A stretch of DNA of 64,000 nt from positions 214,786-278,785 of the IMG/VR virus record IMGVR_UViG_3300028549_001457; one strand, given 5' to 3'. The position numbers and the translations under genes were made by a program. The notes beneath the pieces were generated by a model. That model had not been told where the DNA came from. It searched no databases and saw only the letters and a program-made list of their open reading frames with translations. Of the stretch, positions 9,484 through 36,869 are shown piece after piece; position 1 is the stretch's first letter; every line of letters begins with the position of its first letter. Source of the DNA: a virus. Taxonomy: Duplodnaviria > Caudoviricetes.

Positions 9484-12180
9484 ATGACAAAGAAAAAAGT
9501 TGCCGCAGCAAAGCCCACAAGTATCCCAGCTTCATTTAGTGGGAGTTCTGTGACTACCTCCGTTTCTCTAGGTGTCCCTAAGTATTCTCAATCCATGTCT
9601 TCTGTGGAGAGAATGGATAATCTGCGTCAGATGCGTAGCCAAAAAACAGCCTCGTCCCACACGGCTCTTTTTGGGGTTGGTGGTGGTATGGGTGGGGCTA
9701 CTGGATCTCTCAATCCTTCAAATTACACTAACCCTTATACCCATAACTTCCCGGTAGATATTCTTGAACGTCCGCAAAGTAGGCAGGAGCAGATCGAGTG
9801 GAACGTCAGATGGTACCGTGAGAACCCCATTGTTAGGCGGGTAATTGATCTTCATTCTCAGCTACCGCTGTCTAAAATGACTATCACAAAACCTGCTTCG
9901 TCTTCACAGGCATTTAGCAATTATGTCCATAAATTCTTCTTGGACATGGCTAAGAATATGAAGCTGATACCTAAATTGAGAAGCAACCTGGGGAAGGCAT
10001 ATTGGCTTCATGGGGATGATTTCATCTTCCTAGAAGACCAGAAATTAGACCCTAATGCTACGAATGATAGTGAGTATCAAACAGTTCCAAGTGAATACGA
10101 TAACCAAGCTAGAACAAACTTCTTTGACGTCCACCGGCATATACATACGTCATCCCAAAAAGATTGGGACGTCAAATACGCGAAAATGCTAGCAAATCCC
10201 CTGTTTGCACTGGTCCCCCAATTGCGAGAGCAGGCCCTTCAGGGGTCAACCCCTCGTCCCTCGGGGCCTTTCTTAGATGAGTGTGAATTTAAAGATGTTT
10301 TTGGTAATGACGCAAACTCGTTTCTACAAGTAATCCATACACTTAAAAATGCGGCTTACGAGTTGAAGAAATTTGCTGATACCATTAATGGTAAGCGTAA
10401 AGCGGATATTTCTCGTCTAAATCCCTTGGTGCTTGCTAAGTTAGGTCCTGAGTTTTTATCGTATAAACATCACAGTGCGTATGTAGCCTACAAAAGTGGA
10501 TCTGTTAAGACTGCAGAAGTTAAGGTTGCGGCTGAGGATTCTGAGGGTCCCAATGATGTAGATATGGCACTTGATCCATCCAAACGTCCGGTGTTTAAGC
10601 TCATCGGGTTGGACCCCATTAATGTCCAGAATATCCCAAGAAATGAACGCTCTGTTAGCCCCACGCCAAACCTTGATTTTCAGAAGTTCTTGCAGGATAA
10701 CCCGACTATTCAGAAGGCGCTTTCGGAGCTACCTAATCCAAATGAGCCCGTTCAAATCAATAAAACTGAGGAGGATGTCAGTGTAATGGTGTATGGACCC
10801 GATGGGGTTACGCCGTTGCGAGAGGATGATACTTTTGCGAAAACCCCAGAGGAAGATTCAGACATGGGTATGGGGGATATAGCCGACTTAGACATGGGGC
10901 CACTCCCAGATGACATTATGGCCTCCCCCGAAAATGACCCTGAATATATTGAAAATCTTGAAATCTATAATAAAAACTTAGTTCGCAAGAAGGAGCTTCT
11001 TGAAAAACTAATAGATGAATTAACGTCTAAAGCAACCGACTATAGATGCTTTGCTAATATTAAATATCCTAAATATAAGGGTTGGCAAGCTATGCGGTCC
11101 TTGCCTCCCCATCAAATTGAGGTGGCAAGAAAATCCAATTCAGATGTTAAAGAAATATTTTATATCCCATCTGAAGAAGAAGCCGCAACTATCCAAGCCA
11201 ATTTTGATGATTTATCTGAGGAGGCTCAAGGCTACTGGAAGGCTAAAAAGCGGCTGTTGTTATCGTCTGAAACATCAAATGAGCCCAGTCTAACCAATAA
11301 GGACCTTCCCGCAGACGGGTCTTACTGTGTCCAAGTATCTAACGCCCGTTCTGACTTTGAGTTGTATGGGCATGGATTAGTAGAGCCCTGTTTACGTGAC
11401 TTGATTCACGATGATAAAATTGGGCAGGTAAAGAGCCAAACTTTCGCTAGGAATATGCAGCCTAAGAGACTCGTGGTGGCGGAGGGAGTCGATGACGCTA
11501 CGTTGGCCAAACTACAGGATATGGTGGATGCTTCCACGGTAGACCCAGACGTCTCTATTATTACTAATTATCCAGTTACTTGGCAAGAAATGGGTGTTGG
11601 AGACCGCATTCAGAGTTTTGAAGGTGAGTATTCTCATATTCTTACCAATTTAACTGCTGGATTAGCGTTCTTCCAGGAGTTTATTACTGGACAGATCTCC
11701 TATGGTGGGTCTAAGACTCCACAGGAAATCATGAACACTATGTATTTAGCCTTCAGAGAAGACATTTCATTTTTTATCCAGGAGTGCATCTTTAGACCTG
11801 TTGCAGAACGTAAAGGTTTTTATGATGTGGATGAATTTGGGCAGAAAATCCTTATATACCCAAATATATCATTCTCCAGATTGGCTATCCGTGATGCCGG
11901 TGATACCTATGACATGCTAATAAATCTCTACCTTAAGGGTTCCGTATCTATTTCTAGAATTTATGAGATCCTGAATATTGATGAAGAAGAGGAAACCCAG
12001 AAACTTGAGGATGAACTCTTTACTATTAAGGACCCCAAATTCACAGAGCTTCTTGCGGGTATCTACCAGAATGTTGCACAGACCCTCGTTGAACGAACTA
12101 ACATAACTGAAATGTTAGCCAAGAATATGGGTTTGACATATGAAGAACCCTCAGATGATGGTGGAGGCCCTCCTCTATAA
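9484..12180 (+). CDS. Portal protein with a long insertion
   Basis: 898 aa, RBS GAGGT, follows terL. Portal-like segments WYRENPIVRRVIDLHSQLPLSKM, YWLHGDDF, YGHGLVEPCLRDL, NLTAGL, ECIFRPVAERKGF. Confidence 0.7.
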   Translation: MTKKKVAAAKPTSIPASFSGSSVTTSVSLGVPKYSQSMSSVERMDNLRQMRSQKTASSHTALFGVGGGMGGATGSLNPSNYTNPYTHNFPVDILERPQSRQEQIEWNVRWYRENPIVRRVIDLHSQLPLSKMTITKPASSSQAFSNYVHKFFLDMAKNMKLIPKLRSNLGKAYWLHGDDFIFLEDQKLDPNATNDSEYQTVPSEYDNQARTNFFDVHRHIHTSSQKDWDVKYAKMLANPLFALVPQLREQALQGSTPRPSGPFLDECEFKDVFGNDANSFLQVIHTLKNAAYELKKFADTINGKRKADISRLNPLVLAKLGPEFLSYKHHSAYVAYKSGSVKTAEVKVAAEDSEGPNDVDMALDPSKRPVFKLIGLDPINVQNIPRNERSVSPTPNLDFQKFLQDNPTIQKALSELPNPNEPVQINKTEEDVSVMVYGPDGVTPLREDDTFAKTPEEDSDMGMGDIADLDMGPLPDDIMASPENDPEYIENLEIYNKNLVRKKELLEKLIDELTSKATDYRCFANIKYPKYKGWQAMRSLPPHQIEVARKSNSDVKEIFYIPSEEEAATIQANFDDLSEEAQGYWKAKKRLLLSSETSNEPSLTNKDLPADGSYCVQVSNARSDFELYGHGLVEPCLRDLIHDDKIGQVKSQTFARNMQPKRLVVAEGVDDATLAKLQDMVDASTVDPDVSIITNYPVTWQEMGVGDRIQSFEGEYSHILTNLTAGLAFFQEFITGQISYGGSKTPQEIMNTMYLAFREDISFFIQECIFRPVAERKGFYDVDEFGQKILIYPNISFSRLAIRDAGDTYDMLINLYLKGSVSISRIYEILNIDEEEETQKLEDELFTIKDPKFTELLAGIYQNVAQTLVERTNITEMLAKNMGLTYEEPSDDGGGPPL

Positions 12181-13580
12181 TGACCAAGTCTTGCCTTGAT
12201 CTATTAAGGGATAATTTTGAGACCCTCCGTAAGGGTGGGACCATCCCACTTGAGGGTCTTTCACCTGAGTGTAGTGAATTTGTCTCTATGCTAAATGATC
12301 TCGCAAAACCTTGGGATTCTGAGCGTAAAAGACTAGCTAAAGATCGTCTTTTTATTAGCAGTATCCTGGATTCAATCCCCCAGGGGGTGTTTTGGAAGGA
12401 CACAGATAGTGTGTTCCTGGGGTGCAACCGCCCTTTCGCGGATATGAATAAACTATCTATGGATAAAGTTATAGGAAAAACTGACTACGAACTGGTGGAT
12501 AGTAGTTTAGCGCTACACTTCAGATCAGAGGATCTTGAGGTGTTGACAACTTTGAAAAGAGTCTACTCCTTGAGTCCACCCTCGGATAGTAAACAACGCT
12601 ACACACTTACCACAAAATGTCCTTTAATAGTTAATGATGTTCCTACTGGAGTTATCGGAGTTTCAGAAGATATCACGGATAGAAAAATTGCGGAGCTTCA
12701 GCTCAGCTTAAGTGAGGTTAAGTTTAGAACGCTAACAGAATCTCTAACTGACATTGTATGGATGATGGACCAATCTTTTAATATGTCTTATGTAAACCCT
12801 GCTGTGACTAGGTATACCGGGTTTACCGTGGATGAGATTTTAAAGCTACCTTTAGAAAAACGATACGCCCCTGGAACGGTTAAAACTATCCAAAAACGCC
12901 TTCGCTTTTTAGATGACCCTACGTATATAGGGGACTCAGTAGAGGCAGAGGTCTACCGTAAGGATGGGTCTACGATTTGGATGCTGACTAGATATACTGT
13001 GCTGAGGGGTGCTAAGGGGGAGGTATTTGGGTTTGTCGGCGTGTCTACAGATATCACTGCTCAGAAGAAAAAAGAGTCTATCCTCACGGATTTTGCAACT
13101 CTGGATGGGCTTACTGGTGTGATTAACCGTAGATATTTTATGGAACGGTTGAATGATGAGATGGATCGAGCTTTTAAATATAAAATACCTCTATCCGTGG
13201 CTATGCTAGACATAGATTACTTCAAGAAAATTAATGATACATATGGGCACCCAGCCGGGGACTCAGCTCTGCTCCAATTTGTGGGTGTCATTCAGGGGTG
13301 TCTACGCCAATCAGATTTCCTAGGTAGATTGGGAGGTGAGGAGTTTGCAGTGGTTCTTCAGGGAACTTCTGTAGATGCCACAAAGATTCTCGTGGAGAGA
13401 ATTAGACAATCTGTGTCTGAAACAGTTGTTTCACATGGGGCACTTTCGTTTAACATGACTGTCTCATCCGGTATTACTGGATTAAAAATGACTGATACGG
13501 CAGAGGCTATTATGGCTCGGGTAGATCAGGCCCTTTACGATGCTAAGGGATCCGGGCGAAATTGCTACCGAGTTATTTGA
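12180..13580 (+). CDS. PAS-PAS-GGDEF diguanylate cyclase
   Basis: Two PAS/PAC units (ILDSIPQGVFWKD...DITDRK; LTESLTDIVW...DITAQK), DGLTGVINRR, DIDYFKKINDTYGHPAGD, I-site RQSD, A-site GGEEF. ATG overlaps the portal TAA. Confidence 0.95.
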   Translation: MTKSCLDLLRDNFETLRKGGTIPLEGLSPECSEFVSMLNDLAKPWDSERKRLAKDRLFISSILDSIPQGVFWKDTDSVFLGCNRPFADMNKLSMDKVIGKTDYELVDSSLALHFRSEDLEVLTTLKRVYSLSPPSDSKQRYTLTTKCPLIVNDVPTGVIGVSEDITDRKIAELQLSLSEVKFRTLTESLTDIVWMMDQSFNMSYVNPAVTRYTGFTVDEILKLPLEKRYAPGTVKTIQKRLRFLDDPTYIGDSVEAEVYRKDGSTIWMLTRYTVLRGAKGEVFGFVGVSTDITAQKKKESILTDFATLDGLTGVINRRYFMERLNDEMDRAFKYKIPLSVAMLDIDYFKKINDTYGHPAGDSALLQFVGVIQGCLRQSDFLGRLGGEEFAVVLQGTSVDATKILVERIRQSVSETVVSHGALSFNMTVSSGITGLKMTDTAEAIMARVDQALYDAKGSGRNCYRVI

Positions 13581-25631: not shown

Positions 25632-25727
25632 TGTAAACCGCATAATAACGTAGATACACGCAGTTCATACCAGAAAACATGGTTGTATTCCTTTTGGTGA
25701 GATGTAGTTCTTAGCTGAGGATTCGTT

Positions 25728-28028
25728 TTGATATATTCCGCTGGGCTTTTTAGACATACTGCGGCATCTACTAAGGTTTATGATCGCACAAGACCCAACC
25801 TAGATTTGGTTAGGAAACTTTTAGACCAAATTGAGCATACGTCCCTACACCCTCAGGTAGGGGCTCTAAAGGCTACCCTACAGGATTTCGTATCCGGTGC
25901 TCCAGCTAGGATGCTTGTTTTAGCTAAGGATTCTGGGGGTAAACTTCTTGGTGCGTTAACATATGTTGATGCCAAAGATGAGCAAGAAATAAAAAGCTTG
26001 GGGGTAGTTTCTGGGGATGCTACGGCCCGGTCTTTGATCAGGACCCTCAACCACCAAAAGACTCTCACGGTGTCCGCGCAAACGGCTGACCATGAATTAT
26101 ATGACCAAATGGGGTTCCAACATAGCGAGGAGCTTGAGGATGGAGAACCTTCCTTGATGGTAAAATTACCCCCAGGGCATCAAGCCTCCACGATTCTATC
26201 AAAGGCGAGGGAATTCGCAGCAAAAGCTCATGAAAATGCTGGACAACTACGGAAATATACGAATGAACCCTATATTATACATCCTGAGGGGGTTGTAAAG
26301 ATTCTTCAGGAAAATGGGGTGCTCTCTCCTAATGTATTGGCTGCTGCCTATCTACATGATACCGTTGAGGATACAGCGGTTACTTTGGAAGACATTAAGC
26401 AGGAATTCGGGGATGAGATTGCCGGGTTAGTTGCCATGCTTACGGATGTGGCAAAACCTGAGGATGGGAACCGTGCCGTTAGGATGTCTATTAATAAAGA
26501 CCATGCTGCTCAGGCATCTCCAGATGGTCAAAATATTAAACTAGCAGATTTAATCCATAATGTTCGAGACATAGCTACGAATGACCCGAAGTTTGCAGCC
26601 AGGGTCTACTTACCCGAAAAAGAGGCTGTCTTAAATGTATTAACCAATGCAGACCCAAAGTTGATAGCCCTGGCTTGGGAAGAACTCAATAAGGCAAAAG
26701 AAATGTCTTCGCATAAAAAAGCATTTAAATTAACCGAGTCCCACGCCTCAACTATTTTTTTTCATGGGACTGACTCAGAATCTTCCGCTCAGAGCATCAT
26801 TCAAAATGGTATCCAACCCAGGGATGTTGTGAACCCAGAGTATCGTGGACGCGGGTGGATGGCCCCTCCTAAGGGTAGGGTCTACATTACGCCAAGTCTT
26901 GGGTATGCAGCTATCTATGCTCTAGGTGGGGATATATTCGGGTCCTCAAGCATTACTAATTTTGTGGCTAACAAAGACCCCCATGGGTTCATATTTGAAG
27001 TGTCGGGGAAGGATCTTGCCGGGGATGTCCAGCCAGATGAGGATTATATTGGGAGAACCCTTTGGGTTGCTTGGACATATTCAGATGCATTGAAAAGATT
27101 AGCTAATATTGAAAATGGGTCCCAACCAAGGTCTGGGAGTGAGTTGGATAATCTTAAAGATCGTGTGGATGAAATGGGTAGGGAACCCATTAATAACCCA
27201 GTTAATGAGTCGATTCGTCTTGAACTACTCGCCCTAGCCAAGAATAAGTTGACGGATGGGCAAATCAAACGAGTGAGGCATGGTGAATATGCTGAATGGG
27301 CGAGATCCGGTAAGAAACTACAAAAAGTCTTGCCAGATTCAATCACTCAAGCAATGCTAGCCTGGGGTGCCCACGTAAGCCATTCAGGGACCGTTATGCC
27401 TACAAGGGCTTGGAAATTTAAGAAAGAAGATGCAATGTCAATAAAATCCGGGGCTGAGATCATGCAAATTTGCACTGAGGTATCGTTAAAACCTAAGATG
27501 AATGTGGCATCCAGAATCCTCACTGCTCATTTTAAGCGTAAGGTAGCTACGGATATGTCCCAACTTTTTTGTCCAAACCCAGATTGTGCTGACTTTGAAA
27601 AGGTTGACCATGGTAATCTCTCGCAGGAGTTTGCCTATGGAGTCAATTCAGATAGACATATGATTTACTGTTCAACCTGTAAAACTCGCTTTTCCGAGAC
27701 CAAATGCACTGAATTCTTTGGGGCCAAGCTATCTGGAGAAGAAATTGGAGATATCTTAGATAAGACAGTTGAAGGCAAAAGTATTCGGGATATTGCTGAC
27801 GAGCTTGACCTAAATAAGGATTCTGTTAACAATGTTCTACTTAAGGCTAAGGAAATCTGTGAAGACTACATTGGGAATAAAGAAAATACCAAGGTGACCA
27901 CGGAGATAATGACTGATATGAAGCTTCCCAAGAGCCAGAAAAGCAGTGTGAGAGAGTTCATTGATGAGATTGTTATTCCTGGTATTCATGACGAAAAATC
28001 CGACGATAAAAAAGACTCCGAAGCATAG
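25728..28028 (+). CDS. Polyvalent protein: GNAT-like, HD (RelA/SpoT-hydrolase/Mesh1-like), ART-like and InsA-like Zn-ribbon/HTH domains
   Basis: TTG start with RBS GAGGA. HD: FAAKAH..QLRKYTNEPYIIHP..AAYLHDTVEDT..KLADLIHN. ART-like: FFHGT..IIQNGI..VYITPSLGYAAIYA. C-terminus: CPNPDC..YCSTCKTRFSET..GKSIRDIADELDLNKDSV. Confidence 0.75.
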   Translation: MIYSAGLFRHTAASTKVYDRTRPNLDLVRKLLDQIEHTSLHPQVGALKATLQDFVSGAPARMLVLAKDSGGKLLGALTYVDAKDEQEIKSLGVVSGDATARSLIRTLNHQKTLTVSAQTADHELYDQMGFQHSEELEDGEPSLMVKLPPGHQASTILSKAREFAAKAHENAGQLRKYTNEPYIIHPEGVVKILQENGVLSPNVLAAAYLHDTVEDTAVTLEDIKQEFGDEIAGLVAMLTDVAKPEDGNRAVRMSINKDHAAQASPDGQNIKLADLIHNVRDIATNDPKFAARVYLPEKEAVLNVLTNADPKLIALAWEELNKAKEMSSHKKAFKLTESHASTIFFHGTDSESSAQSIIQNGIQPRDVVNPEYRGRGWMAPPKGRVYITPSLGYAAIYALGGDIFGSSSITNFVANKDPHGFIFEVSGKDLAGDVQPDEDYIGRTLWVAWTYSDALKRLANIENGSQPRSGSELDNLKDRVDEMGREPINNPVNESIRLELLALAKNKLTDGQIKRVRHGEYAEWARSGKKLQKVLPDSITQAMLAWGAHVSHSGTVMPTRAWKFKKEDAMSIKSGAEIMQICTEVSLKPKMNVASRILTAHFKRKVATDMSQLFCPNPDCADFEKVDHGNLSQEFAYGVNSDRHMIYCSTCKTRFSETKCTEFFGAKLSGEEIGDILDKTVEGKSIRDIADELDLNKDSVNNVLLKAKEICEDYIGNKENTKVTTEIMTDMKLPKSQKSSVREFIDEIVIPGIHDEKSDDKKDSEA

Positions 28029-28070
28029 CTTCATGTATCTAGTTTGCAACCTTTTGGTAAGGTTCCACCC

Positions 28071-28643
28071 ATGCGAGTTATGACCCCCTCTCAGCATAAA
28101 ACTGCCCTCCGCCATTTTGCGGATAGGGATTCCTCACGAGTTTTGTTTGATACGGAGTGGTTGCAACTCAAAGAAGTTGATGGGTATGTGTATAGCCACG
28201 AAATTAGGTGTAATGGGAGTATTGTAGTAGTGCTTCCATACCGTAGAGTTGGGAAGGACGCATGGGAGTTTCTTTTACGAGACGAAGTTACCCCTTGTTG
28301 GGGGGGTGATAAACCAACCAGAAGTGCTATCACAGGTGGCGTAGAAAACGGAGAACCCCTTGAGGATGCTGTTAGAGAACTAAAAGAGGAGGCTGGGTAT
28401 ACCATAGCTCCAGATAAGTTCGAATTTTTAGGGAAATGTCGAGGGACAAAATCTTCAGATACATACTACTTCTTGTATGCGGTTGATCTTGCAGGGCAGA
28501 CCCCTACGAAGGCTCTTGGAGATGGGTCAAAGGGAGATCTAGCCCCCGCTGTTTGGGTGTATGGGTCTGATGTTTGTGCCCTTGAGGATGCTCAGGCCAT
28601 TACCGCATATAGTAAAGCTCGGCTTAAACTAGGGATCTACTGA
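28071..28643 (+). CDS. Nudix hydrolase
   Basis: Nudix box GGVENGEPLEDAVRELKEEAGY. ATG 28071 preferred over the upstream TTG at 28044. Confidence 0.85.
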   Translation: MRVMTPSQHKTALRHFADRDSSRVLFDTEWLQLKEVDGYVYSHEIRCNGSIVVVLPYRRVGKDAWEFLLRDEVTPCWGGDKPTRSAITGGVENGEPLEDAVRELKEEAGYTIAPDKFEFLGKCRGTKSSDTYYFLYAVDLAGQTPTKALGDGSKGDLAPAVWVYGSDVCALEDAQAITAYSKARLKLGIY

Positions 28644-34111: not shown

Positions 34112-34327
34112 ATGATTGCTAAAGAGTCCTGTCCAAATGAATCCTGTAGAGGAACTTTGCACAAGTTCCATACTACTGATTGGTGGGAGTGTGATCACTG
34201 TCATTGGAAGGGGACCACTTCCGAAATTTTGGTTGTGAAAGCTCCCCCAATTTCTAAGCAGAAGCCATTGTCATTGGATTTTTTGGATAGCCCACCCGTA
34301 TCTAGGGCATGGGGGACCAGTGACTAA
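34112..34327 (+). CDS. Small Zn-ribbon protein
   Basis: RBS GGAGGT; CPNESC...WECDHC. Confidence 0.55.
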   Translation: MIAKESCPNESCRGTLHKFHTTDWWECDHCHWKGTTSEILVVKAPPISKQKPLSLDFLDSPPVSRAWGTSD

Positions 34328-36869
34328 CTCCGTAGAACGTATCCTGGCTGTGACCGATATGATGGCATCAGTTCAGGCGGCTTCCCCTGGGGAGAAGGAT
34401 GCAACGGGTTTCAGTAATGCTGATTTTCCGCTTGGAATGGTTCTATCCGTGACAGGGGACGTAGAGAAATCTGCGGCCCTGCTTTGGCTCTACACGGGTC
34501 AGGCTGAGGGGCACGGGATCTTGAAAGCGGATCTTTTGGAGCATTTGCCGGAAGATTTCGATGGGAGTAGGGCTTCCGCTAGAACCATTCTCAATGATGC
34601 CCGAACTAATCTTGAGGGCAAGCTAGGCTTCGTTGCTACTGAGTCTGGGGTGATTTTTAATGGGGTTCGTCTTGGCCTTGAGACCACTCGTTCCTTGAAA
34701 CGGCTGGGTGCTACCAGAACCTCTACGGGATGGTTGCTAGCTAACTCTCGGGTGCAGGAGGCTACCCGTGTCCTTGGTGCAACCATTCTCCATGCTGAAG
34801 CTCTGGAATCAATTATTGAGTCTTGCCCTCAGATGGTTATCCCTACTGGATCTCTTCCAGAAAAACAGAAGAATGGTATCACCTTTACTGTCTCAGAGAA
34901 TACTGTCAGTTGGACGTATTCTAGTGCCAACCCCCTGTTTGGACAGATTAAGGATATCGTGAAGAGTATTGGAGCGCGATACAATGGTGCGGGGGGTTGG
35001 GAAATGAAACCCGAGAATCTTTCCGTGCTAGCTCTGACCATGCTTGACCTCAACCTGGATAAGGTGGACACCTCTGCTCTGGAACCTTTTGTCACTTCGG
35101 ACCCTGAAATTCAGGCTCTGAAAGAAGAAATTGCAACTAACTCTTTGCGCGTCAAGCTTACCAAGGTTGGTGAGAACAAGGTTAAGCTCTCCATTCGTAA
35201 GTATCAGGAGAATTTCATCAGCGTTTGTCGCAACGCACAGGGACGTTATGATGGTGCGGGTGGATGGGTGGTTGATCAAACCTCTATCCCAGCTATTGCG
35301 GCGTCTCTCGCAACCAATCCTCAGTTTGATACCTCTGCGCTGGATGCTTTCCTGCCTTCGGAAGCTGATCTTGAGCATCGCCTTGCTTCGGATTCTGCCA
35401 TCCCCACCAAGACTCCCACAGGGTTTAGTCTTTTCCCCCATCAGGTTGATGATGTGGCCTTTTTGATCAAACCTGCGGCTGATGCCAAGGGCTGTTCCAA
35501 GTTGCTTGGCAATGACATGGGGACGGGCAAGACCCTGTCAAGTCTAGTGGCTGCAAACTTTAAATGCCCAACCGGGCGTTTCCTGGTGGTCGTTCCTGCT
35601 GTAGCCAAGCTTAACTGGGCTAAGGAAATCAAGAAGTGGATTGGTGCAGAGGAGAAGATTCAGGTGGTCGTTGGTCGCAGTGCGACACTGGACCCTGCGG
35701 CTCGTTGGACCATCATCAATTATGACATCATCAGCTATTACAAAGACGCTCTTATGAGCGCAAAGTTTGATATCGCTATCCTTGATGAGTGCCATCAGAT
35801 TAAGACCTATTCAACCCAGAGAGCGGCTGCACTGATTCCTACGTTTAATCGCACCACGCAGACCATGGATAAGGCAATTCTTTCGAATATTCCTAATGTC
35901 TGGACGATGACCGGAACCTTCATTATGAATAGAATGAAGGAACTCTTTACCACCCTTCGTGCTGTTGACCACCGATTGGGTCGGTCTAAGCGTCAATTTG
36001 AAGAACGCTACTGTGGCGGTGAGTCTCGCTATGTTGGTCATGGGCGCACGGTTTGGATGGCTAATGGTGCCTCCAACCTTCCCGAGTTGGCTTCTAAGTT
36101 GGCCCCCATCTATCGTAAAGTTATGAAGGTGGATGTTCTTAAGGACCTCCCCAATAAAATGCGTGATGACTTCCAGGTCGAAGTTTCCAACAAGGATTTG
36201 ATGGAAATCCGTAGACTGGAACGGGCTATTGAACTGGCCTTGGAAGGTGCTGACGAAGAGGACGAGGCTCCCTGCATCCTGCCTTACATTACGGAAATGA
36301 AGATTGCTACAGCTAGAATGAAGGTGGAAGCTACTCTGGCTGAGGCTGATGCTGTAGTTGACGCTGGGAACAAGGTGATTATTTTCACTGAGTATACTGA
36401 TGTTTTGCAGAGTATCCTTGAGCACTTCGGTGAAAAAGCTGTATATATTGATGGCTCCATCACGGGGGCTAAGCGGGAAGCTTCGGTAGAAGCCTTCCAA
36501 GACAACCCGGAAATCCGTGTTCTAGTAGGTAATATCAAGGCTTGCGGTGTGGCTATTACTCTGACTGCTGCCAGCCATGTTATCTTCAATGATAAGCCTT
36601 GGAACCCTGCTTTGGCTGCTCAGGCTGAAGATAGGGCCTACCGCATTGGTCAAACTAAGAGTGTTAACATCATTTATATGACCGCTCCTGGAACCTACGA
36701 TGAGCAACTCTCTGCCAAACTCCTCGAAAAGTCCACTCTAGTCACTAACTGGGAGTCCATGACCGAGGCGGAAGTTCAAGCTTTGAACCCTCGCTCTGAA
36801 ATGGAAGAGATTATTACTTATATTCGTAGTAAGAGAGTTGGACTTCCTATATATTCTCACCGTATCTAG
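34320..36869 (+). CDS. SNF2-family helicase/translocase with duplicated N-terminal HARP-like modules
   Basis: NDMGTGKT, LDECHQIK, MTGT, KVIIFT, ITLTAASHVIF, QAEDRAYRIGQ. N-terminal repeats GARYNGAGGW and GRYDGAGGW. Confidence 0.9.
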   Translation: MTNSVERILAVTDMMASVQAASPGEKDATGFSNADFPLGMVLSVTGDVEKSAALLWLYTGQAEGHGILKADLLEHLPEDFDGSRASARTILNDARTNLEGKLGFVATESGVIFNGVRLGLETTRSLKRLGATRTSTGWLLANSRVQEATRVLGATILHAEALESIIESCPQMVIPTGSLPEKQKNGITFTVSENTVSWTYSSANPLFGQIKDIVKSIGARYNGAGGWEMKPENLSVLALTMLDLNLDKVDTSALEPFVTSDPEIQALKEEIATNSLRVKLTKVGENKVKLSIRKYQENFISVCRNAQGRYDGAGGWVVDQTSIPAIAASLATNPQFDTSALDAFLPSEADLEHRLASDSAIPTKTPTGFSLFPHQVDDVAFLIKPAADAKGCSKLLGNDMGTGKTLSSLVAANFKCPTGRFLVVVPAVAKLNWAKEIKKWIGAEEKIQVVVGRSATLDPAARWTIINYDIISYYKDALMSAKFDIAILDECHQIKTYSTQRAAALIPTFNRTTQTMDKAILSNIPNVWTMTGTFIMNRMKELFTTLRAVDHRLGRSKRQFEERYCGGESRYVGHGRTVWMANGASNLPELASKLAPIYRKVMKVDVLKDLPNKMRDDFQVEVSNKDLMEIRRLERAIELALEGADEEDEAPCILPYITEMKIATARMKVEATLAEADAVVDAGNKVIIFTEYTDVLQSILEHFGEKAVYIDGSITGAKREASVEAFQDNPEIRVLVGNIKACGVAITLTAASHVIFNDKPWNPALAAQAEDRAYRIGQTKSVNIIYMTAPGTYDEQLSAKLLEKSTLVTNWESMTEAEVQALNPRSEMEEIITYIRSKRVGLPIYSHRI

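Follow-up and report, generated by a model that had tools for sequence, protein, structure and literature searches.

The record of an uncultured Caudoviricetes jumbo phage (IMGVR_UViG_3300028549_001457; 278,785 bp, completeness estimate 95%) supplies the window analysed here, the whole 64,000-nt stretch that forms its last 64 kb. On the plus strand of the window, one gene encodes P0001, a protein of four unrelated modules: a GNAT fold, an HD-type small alarmone hydrolase (SAH), an ADP-ribosyltransferase (ART) fold and a zinc ribbon with a helix-turn-helix (HTH). The peptides at the module borders share a short motif, which recurs in the phage's head-maturation protease. The explanation that we put at somewhat better than even is that P0001 is virion cargo and would be cut at this junction motif by the phage's own head-maturation protease into separate host-acting proteins. 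The identities of the domains, the position-specific conservation of the motif and the co-occurrence of the motif with one protease family are established here.

Features of P0001 and its gene (open reading frame, ORF; aa, amino acid residues; evidence in brackets):

25717..25721, plus strand: ribosome-binding site GAGGA, 6 nt 5' of the TTG start (read from the sequence)
25728..28028, plus strand: polyvalent protein ORF (P0001), 766 aa, stop included (TTG start at 25728)
25728..25772, plus strand: N-terminal propeptide-like segment, aa 1-15, weak leader copy MIYSAGLFR plus junction motif 1 (leader position matrix, homologs)
25764..26177, plus strand: GNAT-fold domain, aa 13-150 (VIA-align on the full-length model)
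26178..26192, plus strand: junction motif 2, HQAST, aa 151-155 (coil between the final GNAT strand and the first HD helix)
26193..26711, plus strand: predicted HD small alarmone hydrolase (RelA/SpoT hydrolase, Mesh1/SAH type), aa 156-328 (Pfam, PDB, fold)
26712..26753, plus strand: junction 3, HKKAFKLTESHAST, aa 329-342 (low model confidence, column alignment)
26754..27497, plus strand: ART-fold domain, aa 343-590, with a large helical insert at ~aa 438-545 (AlphaFold2, VIA-align, Foldseek)
27498..27551, plus strand: junction 4, MNVASRILTAHFKRKVA-T, aa 591-608, internal leader copy MNVASRILTA plus KVAT (leader position matrix)
27552..28025, plus strand: zinc ribbon, HTH and acidic tail, aa 608-766 (Cys conservation, Pfam sub-threshold, protein atlas)

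Four modules in one chain

A sequence-only reading of this ORF had named four unrelated domains, GNAT-like, ppGpp-hydrolase-like HD, ART-like and zinc/HTH, and all four calls hold at the level of fold or family (AlphaFold2 with VIA-align, Pfam and homologs). The full-length model, made with AlphaFold2 and searched structurally with VIA-align, has a mean predicted local distance difference test (pLDDT) of 79.5. We predict from sequence and model that the HD domain is a Mesh1-type small alarmone hydrolase. It matches Pfam HD_4 (PF13328) at 2.6e-16 (60.2 bits against a cut-off of 27.2) and Mesh1 among PDB sequences at 7e-19, and in fold comparison aa 151-325 match human Mesh1 (Z 24.0, root-mean-square deviation (rmsd) 2.2 A, 169 aligned residues, 31% identity) and the bacterial SAHs PaSAH and RelH (Z 21-22). 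The HD motifs IIHPEG, LHDTVEDT and KLADLIHNVRD are intact and align with Mesh1/Rel residues; HP, HDxxED and KLADxxxN are the catalytic and metal-binding motifs of the SAH family. Over aa 157-305 the domain is 49% identical to the alarmone hydrolase of Salmonella phage SSU5. Phage SAHs, from Salmonella phages SSU5 and PVP-SE1, counter toxic alarmone synthetases, and the SSU5 hydrolase neutralised all of the toxic small alarmone synthetases against which it was tried (Jimmy et al. 2020, PMC7229694).

The N-terminal domain (aa 9-153 of the model) matches the acetyltransferases GCN5, PCAF, Ard1 and RimI at Z 10.0-10.3 with 112-132 residues aligned, and GNAT clusters are the nearest neighbours of this domain in a protein atlas. 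Its Pfam scores lie below threshold (0.07-0.24 overall; Acetyltransf_10 E 0.074, FR47 E 0.24), and a sequence-profile search of PDB returned no GNAT match. VVSGDATARSLI stands at the acetyl-CoA pyrophosphate-binding stretch, where the canonical Q/R-x-x-G-x-G/A motif is not evident. Because the sequence support is sub-threshold and the acetyl-CoA loop is not evident, we assign the fold and not the activity, and the domain may be divergent or inactive.

The ART-like domain was modelled by AlphaFold2 from a 68-sequence alignment with high confidence (pLDDT 93.8, predicted template-modelling score 0.89), and the fold predicted is that of the ART enzymes, to which about 30 of the 35 top VIA-align chains belong. 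Tpt1/KptA leads the list (Z 8.2, with rmsd 2.7 A over 86 aligned residues, and 7.8), followed by matches that include TreX (7.0), pertussis toxin S1 (6.8), scabin (6.7), PARPs, DarT, diphtheria toxin and Arr. The top Foldseek matches, to pertussis toxin S1, DarT1, Tpt1 and Arr, are weak (E 0.02-0.3, with a probability of up to 0.99 for pertussis toxin S1). As the Z values are moderate, the ART-fold call rests on the uniformity of the match list. Pfam has no family, ART-PolyVal (PF18760) included, that matches aa 330-600 of P0001 even at E <= 10; none of 68 scanned members of the ART-like family matches a Pfam ART family, and a sequence-profile search of PDB with this domain gave nothing significant. 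Recognition of the GNAT and ART folds came from the models only.

The ART-like family comprises 560 representatives at E <= 1e-3, many of them standalone proteins of ~230 aa and others lying inside chains of 1,000-5,005 residues. H346-G347 (the HGT motif), Y386 and D437-E438-D439 are invariant in 68 members, and the HGT strand aligns weakly with the corresponding Tpt1 strand; H346, Y386 and E438 are candidates for the His, Tyr and Glu that line the NAD+ site in the H-Y-E clade of the ART superfamily. The helical insert, of ~110 residues, is specific to the long forms of the family. PF18760 labels on the chains P0008 and P0010 may belong to other YHGT modules of those chains. A conserved HD-to-ART gene pair in Vibrio phages, taken from a long tblastn alignment, was rejected (hhalign probability 0.2).

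The C-terminal module agrees with the zinc/HTH call in having five cysteines that are invariant in 5 homologs, namely C615 and C620 (C-x4-C), C648 and C651 (C-x2-C) and C660, ahead of a putative HTH. Its Pfam matches are sub-threshold (GerE 0.005, Sigma70_r4_2 0.008, HTH_38 0.015 and also IBR), and in a protein language model atlas the closest clusters are of the IS1/InsA Zn-ribbon-HTH type (score 0.88-0.92). In the full-length model the zinc-ribbon part has a pLDDT <50. Three homologs (P0003, P0004 and P0005) retain just the ART helical insert and the Zn-ribbon/HTH (aligned window 27039-27362) and have lost the ART beta-core, so that the insert and the Zn-ribbon/HTH may together be a functional unit of their own.

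A short motif at the module borders

The four junction peptides lie where the sequence-only reading had placed them, with a single shift, HKKA beginning one codon earlier at 26712. Its description of one recurring linker stands in part: the motif is present at the module borders, and the four linkers are not uniform, boundaries 1 and 4 being leader-like as well. At junction 1 (HTAAST, aa 10-15) Ala12 is invariant in 5 homologs and the residues preceding it vary. Junction 2 reads HEAS, KVAS, KTAAS, RLAT or KLAS in homologs, regardless of the domain that comes next, and junction 4 reads KVAS, KVAT, KFAAT or KIAA. At junction 3 HKK.A lies 12 residues ahead of the FFHGT strand. Model confidence dips at the junctions, with a pLDDT of 45 at aa 1-10, 75-77 at 131-160, 56 at 331-340 and <50 at 592-617.

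The junction peptides generalise to [K/R/H]-x-A-[A/S/T], and within P0001 three of the four copies of this motif fall in the inter-domain 8.5% of residues (p = 0.002). [KRH]-x-A-[AST], and not H-x-A-S-T, is the informative form: the narrow form was rejected as a genome-wide signal (3 copies vs 0.9 expected; 42 occurrences of AST vs 45 expected), and the three AST tripeptides of P0001 are unremarkable (~4 tripeptides reach 3 copies in shuffles). Codons for Ser and other residues vary at every motif copy, including TCN versus AGY for Ser. Since the codons differ among copies, selection acts at the protein level, and the same variation rules out a DNA-level cause such as a recombination cassette or a regulatory repeat at the junctions. 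An internal start at ATG 27498, within junction 4, is unlikely, the closest GAGG lying 17 nt upstream.

Eight homologs of P0001 contain the same modules in shuffled orders and combinations, and nearly all of their [K/R/H]-x-A-[A/S/T] copies stand at module borders. The sequence-only reading had made enrichment of the motif at boundaries in homologs one test of its proposal, and the motif is indeed enriched there: of the 36 copies, 21 are no more than 10 residues from a BLAST breakpoint, in zones that make up 17% of residues (binomial p = 2.8e-8; none of 5000 circular shifts does as well). Shuffling the residues of the junction windows left 4.45 copies vs the 21 observed (a number reached in 0 of 3000 shuffles), and the reversed motif was at chance (4 copies vs 4.5 expected), so the motif is ordered and not a by-product of linker composition. 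Related control motifs were not enriched at the BLAST breakpoints. Homolog alignments show the motif kept while the adjoining linker residues diverge. In giant relatives a stereotyped K-T-A-[A/S/T] recurs every 100-300 residues, frequently just before a module starts, and exceeds expectation in P0019 (32 copies vs 10.6), P0031 (22 vs 8.2) and P0025 (10 vs 2.8).

A second, longer element overlaps two of the borders. At least 12 unrelated proteins of the genome start with the leader M-[LI]-[KR]-[VI]-S-[RK]-[LIV]-[LF]-x-small, and when a position matrix built from 12 leaders was scored at 82,306 positions, P0001 position 591 (MNVASRILTAHF) ranked 27 and position 1 ranked 30. Both copies are weak, with 5-6.5 bits vs 29-34 for true leaders. 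The idea that all four junctions are leader copies was dropped: aa 1 and aa 591 alone score, and HQAST and SHAST do not. A 446-aa protein at genome 178917-180257 (L007:3917-5254) starts with a full leader and has another, which keeps its Met, at aa 160, ahead of an ART-PolyVal domain (PF18760, 9e-15); from this full internal leader it follows that leader-tagged genes do fuse. In two homologs a further leader copy (MLKVSKILTAGLL; IIKASRIFKH) lies past the Zn-ribbon/HTH, at aa 920-966 of P0002 and aa 620-636 of P0003, with a short tail or nothing after it, and could be what is left of a further module or the beginning of one.

The head-maturation protease and its candidate substrates

The head module (protease, scaffold-like protein and capsid protein) lies elsewhere in the genome, outside the window. 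The head-maturation protease (401 aa, genome 29910-31115, L003:2910-4112, PHROG 18299) belongs to no Pfam family and finds no counterpart among PDB sequences, and its family comprises at least 624 homologs, none with a Pfam domain and many on contigs of 200-400 kb. The Pfam S77/S78 proteases (PF03420 and PF04586) are absent from the genome. The comparison with T4 gp21 and phiKZ gp175, drawn when the sequence was first read, therefore keeps its value as an analogy and not as kinship with those Pfam families. His98 and Ser212 are conserved, and a Cys-rich stretch (C-S-Y-C-G-H ... F-C-x-C) could bind metal.

The protease itself carries the motif, as H-T-A-S at aa 25 and as P-K-A-A-A and L-K-A-A-S-A around aa 318-328 (K-A-A-S-A at aa 324). 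In 12 orthologs (63-82% identical) H-x-A-[AST] is invariant at the join between a variable 24-residue N-terminus and the invariant core, and K-A-A-S-A is kept in the linker ahead of the C-terminal domain. In the wider family the 20 residues upstream of the core contain the motif in 61 of 117 members, vs 11.3 in random windows, and its most frequent forms are KTAS, KTAA, HTAA and KVAA.

Other proteins of the phage bear the motif too, among them the first two of the following, which are encoded in the same window as P0001:

238..4167, plus strand: second polyvalent protein, 1309 aa, with an InPase domain, a type usual in polyvalent proteins (Pfam InPase 6e-24)
9484..12180, plus strand: portal gene (PHROG portal family)
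28044..28643, plus strand: NUDIX hydrolase gene, directly 3' of the P0001 gene (Pfam NUDIX 1.7e-7)

The acidic scaffold-like protein (468 aa), whose ORF stands between those of the protease and the capsid protein, has 7 copies vs 1.55 expected, and the major capsid protein (291 aa) has K-I-A-A at aa 26. The portal N-terminus has KVAA (aa 5) and Q-KTAS (aa 54), and the portal of a relative has KKAA at aa 4 and Q-KTAA at aa 60, ahead of the same conserved FGVG block. The InPase polyvalent protein contains 22 copies vs 4.85 expected (p = 1e-8), which have varying codons and gather at aa 114-384 and 735-1110, the InPase domain itself being free of them, and the ortholog of a relative contains 13 vs 3.6 expected; this protein is probably another polyprotein like P0001, but larger. 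Tail fibres, the terminase, the GGDEF protein and the NUDIX hydrolase have no copies or a chance level of them.

The pattern is replicated independently, at the level of sequence, in the Tunturiibacter phage Tunturi_5, a cultured 309-kb myovirus and the sole cultured phage with clear homologs of both the ART-like domain and the protease (protease E 2e-24). In its polyvalent protein gp205 (853 aa) K-T-A-A precedes each of three modules, namely the ART-like domain, a second YH-type module and a GNAT module, and K-A-A-S follows the ART-like domain. The Tunturi_5 protease has K-T-A-A in the column of H-T-A-S, and its capsid protein has K-L-A-A in the column of K-I-A-A. Copies are also numerous in the protein at the scaffold position (7 vs 2.3 expected) and in the annotated DNA ejection protein (11 vs 3.4 expected).

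Standalone members of the ART-like family point to a different code at the same place. The K-x-A motif occurs in just 4 of 88 of them, and [LIVMF]-x-E/[M/A], with the first slash marking a T4-type cut, occurs in 47 of 88; in 39 of these 47 the site lies exactly 12 residues upstream of the HGT strand, vs 7.2 in shuffles. In a column alignment E/MAAP...YYHGT (T4-type) corresponds to K.TAAP...FYHGT (polyvalent relatives) and to HKK.AFKLTESHASTI-FFHGT (P0001). Because the T4-type and K-x-A sites align, the same fold appears to be preceded by whichever short code suits the resident protease. Several standalone members start with decapeptides in which 6 of 10 residues match the T4 capsid-targeting sequence (CTS), MKTYQEFIAE (PMC8442874), the common residues including an aromatic at 4, F at 7, I/L at 8 and E at 10. 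In the T4 CTS, targeting is governed by positions 4 and 7 and processing by positions 8 and 10 (PMC9026906). Adjoining unrelated genes on the ART-like contigs start with the same decapeptide, as in the T4 internal-protein locus. Such arrays (L018:1524-3629, L017:5305-8813, L010:433-1080 and L009:40-693; e.g., MKSFKSFIAE and MITFKQFLAE) look like T4-type internal-protein cargo genes, in phages that are not obviously T4-like.

We predict that P0001 would be loaded into the procapsid, that the head-maturation protease would cut it at its [K/H]-x-A-[S/T/A] junctions and that the resulting separate proteins would enter the host along with the DNA. The hydrolase would then degrade alarmones of the (p)ppGpp/(p)ppApp type and so weaken the stringent response or defences based on toxic alarmone synthetases, the ART-like enzyme would carry out an NAD+-dependent modification of host protein or nucleic acid, and the Zn-ribbon/HTH part would bind DNA. 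Packaging, cleavage, the scissile bond, injection and all substrates are thus predictions from the sequence. Herpesvirus assemblin cuts V/L-x-A-S between Ala and Ser, and HK97 gp4 cuts after Lys103 of gp5. The scissile bond in P0001 may accordingly lie after Ala, as the sequence-only reading proposed and as in assemblin, or after the basic residue, as for HK97 gp4, both being possible by analogy; by the alignment with the T4-type E site the cut would fall after the basic residue. A wider conjecture, on which we are evenly divided, is that the clade of huge phages with this protease family (624 homologs, on contigs of up to 400 kb) would use [K/H]-x-A-[A/S/T] as a universal cut code. Arbitrary effector modules could then be joined into polyproteins of 0.7 to >5 thousand residues, to be separated within the capsid, and effector domains would pass from one phage lineage to another with a change of this code alone, the ART-like domain with its T4-type tag in other phages being an example.

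Alternative explanations

Several observations weigh against cleavage of P0001 at these peptides. The motif is short and degenerate and is not enriched in P0001 as a whole (4 copies vs 2.3 expected), where KFAAR (aa 288) falls within the HD domain, and junction 3 matches loosely (HKKA-F, S-HAST). The junction counts in homologs are not independent events, because the homologs are related, and the specificity of the protease cannot be deduced from homology, since it has no Pfam family and no solved sequence relative. A coiled-coil fibre protein (genome 156087-158306) also scores high; as a motif-rich substrate this ORF is a false positive whose score is driven by coiled-coil repeats. The SNF2 helicase (window 34320-36869) has 7 copies vs 2.7 expected, an excess that is probably due to chance (2 vs 2.0 in the ortholog of a relative). 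The paper on Tunturi_5 contains no mass spectrometry or virion proteomics (PMC11924767).

The chain may instead be packaged and injected intact, with the peptides serving as docking or spacer elements (e.g., contacts with the scaffold core or the capsid interior) and not as cut sites, a possibility that we consider unlikely. Some polyvalent proteins are transferred full-length (Iyer et al. 2017, PMC5512222), and P0001 has only 4-5 motif copies. The existence of a separate targeting-like N-terminal leader also implies that the short peptides here may serve loading. Docking or spacing fits less well with the places in which the motif is found, because maturation cuts typically fall at such places as the propeptide/core border of the protease and the N-termini of the capsid and portal proteins. 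The scaffold-like protein contains many copies of the motif, and the aligned position in other lineages is occupied by a T4-type CTS that ends in a gp21 cut motif.

Distinctly less probable is a cytoplasmic multi-domain counter-defence enzyme that would not be in virions, its peptides being N-terminal relics of fused genes kept as flexible linkers. The resemblance of two boundaries to the genome leader, the internal leader with Met in the 178917-180257 protein and the ability of standalone phage SAHs to work from the cytoplasm are all consistent with such an origin. A relic would, however, not account for an ordered motif far above the expectation from linker composition, nor for its conservation where the flanking linker diverges; Met precedes just ~1/20 of the K-T-A-A copies in P0019, and fusion leaves the motif in the protease, the capsid protein, the portal and the scaffold-like protein unexplained.

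Cutting by another agent, whether a host protease after injection or an unrecognised self-cleavage, seems to us very improbable. Iyer et al. proposed post-delivery processing for polyvalent proteins with their own metallopeptidase (PMC5512222), but P0001 has no peptidase domain by Pfam or structural search, and the motif co-occurs with the protease family in two distant phages and marks the protease's own domain borders. That the four linkers resemble each other by chance is scarcely credible given the position-specific enrichment and the conservation in homologs and in an independent phage, even though three copies of AST are unremarkable across all tripeptides and AST is not enriched genome-wide.

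Genomic setting and known systems

The genes of the record lie nearly all on one strand. Upstream (5') of the P0001 gene are those for the InPase polyvalent protein, the large terminase, the portal and a PAS-PAS-GGDEF protein, as well as fibre-like genes, a radical SAM enzyme, a 1428-aa virion protein and an 826-aa fibre protein. With terminase, portal and tail-fibre genes upstream, the setting matches that of late or virion genes, and with a GNAT fold, an SAH, an ART fold and a Zn-ribbon/HTH in one phage polypeptide P0001 exceeds the two unrelated effector domains by which polyvalent proteins are recognised. Its sequence and its setting thus support a phage polyvalent protein in the head/packaging region. 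Metagenomic relatives keep the gene order polyvalent protein, NUDIX, three nameless genes and SNF2 helicase; the NUDIX gene lies 3' of the homologous polyvalent gene in all three relatives examined, and in two relatives the polyvalent gene is immediately 3' of the portal gene. No close relatives were found in IMG/VR by peptide-pattern search and no nucleotide relatives among cultured phages. The PAS-PAS-GGDEF diguanylate cyclase gene (12180-13580; Pfam GGDEF 1.4e-42) starts at the final base of the portal ORF (12180), placing a c-di-GMP synthase within the packaging operon.

If the motif is a real protease site, it would provide a sequence rule that predicts capsid cargo and mature ends in many uncultured huge phages. 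It would also explain the continual adding and shuffling of counter-defence modules, each of which would bring or receive a four-residue code. An alarmone hydrolase delivered in this way would act before phage gene expression, which would be sensible against toxic alarmone-synthetase defences. The analysis also defines a large ART-fold family that is absent from Pfam and is cargo-tagged in at least two protease systems. Because a member of the clade, Tunturi_5, is in culture, the idea is open to direct test.

Earlier work has established polyvalent proteins, capsid-targeting tags and the processing of internal head proteins by proteases (PMC5512222, PMC9026906, PMC5694885); in the literature searched we found no description of the motif, of the specificity of this protease family or of an alarmone hydrolase as a polyvalent module. 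P0001 resembles the polyvalent proteins of Iyer et al. (2017, PMC5512222) in combining unrelated effector domains in one chain, with ART and GNAT paired, in its head/packaging location, in the presence of an InPase-type polyvalent protein in the same window and in its expected delivery with the DNA. It differs in that their set includes RelA/SpoT synthetase domains and P0001 has an HD alarmone hydrolase, and its ART-like domain is unlike Pfam ART-PolyVal, to which it has no match. That study names no linker motif (0 occurrences of 'linker') and ascribes processing mainly to a built-in metallopeptidase, of which P0001 has none. The standalone phage SAHs of SSU5 and PVP-SE1 are like the P0001 HD domain in sequence (49% to SSU5), with catalytic motifs intact, but they are solitary genes, whereas the P0001 hydrolase is one module of a four-module head-region chain.

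The T4 internal proteins and Alt reportedly combine a capsid-targeting sequence with gp21 cleavage, as Mullaney and Black are said to have described in 1996. Their likeness to P0001 lies in short portable peptides placed before unrelated cargo enzymes, including an ART, and gp21 also trims itself, the scaffold and the capsid protein. T4 gp21 cuts at L/I-x-E (reviewed in PMC9026906), an aliphatic-x-Glu motif, whereas that of P0001 is basic-x-Ala-small; both the S77 protease and the L/I-x-E motif are absent from this phage system, which may work in a T4-like way but does not belong to the T4 type. The sites in P0001 are moreover internal, so that one chain would give several enzymes. The proteases phiKZ gp175 and SPN3US gp245 process head and ejection proteins at S/A/G-x-E (PMC5694885, PMC10052503). 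Those are likewise jumbo phages, in which, as would be the case here, many head-internal proteins are cut at a short motif that is also present in protease and scaffold; they differ in that the motif is unrelated, the protease is distantly related if at all, and processing here is a prediction. With proteases of the assemblin/HK97 type the phage protease may share the kind of cut: cleavage between Ala (P1) and Ser (P1') and cleavage after a basic P1 would both fit the motif, and its conserved His98 and Ser212 would suit a Ser/His enzyme. The phage protease has no Pfam or PDB sequence match that would link it to their fold class.

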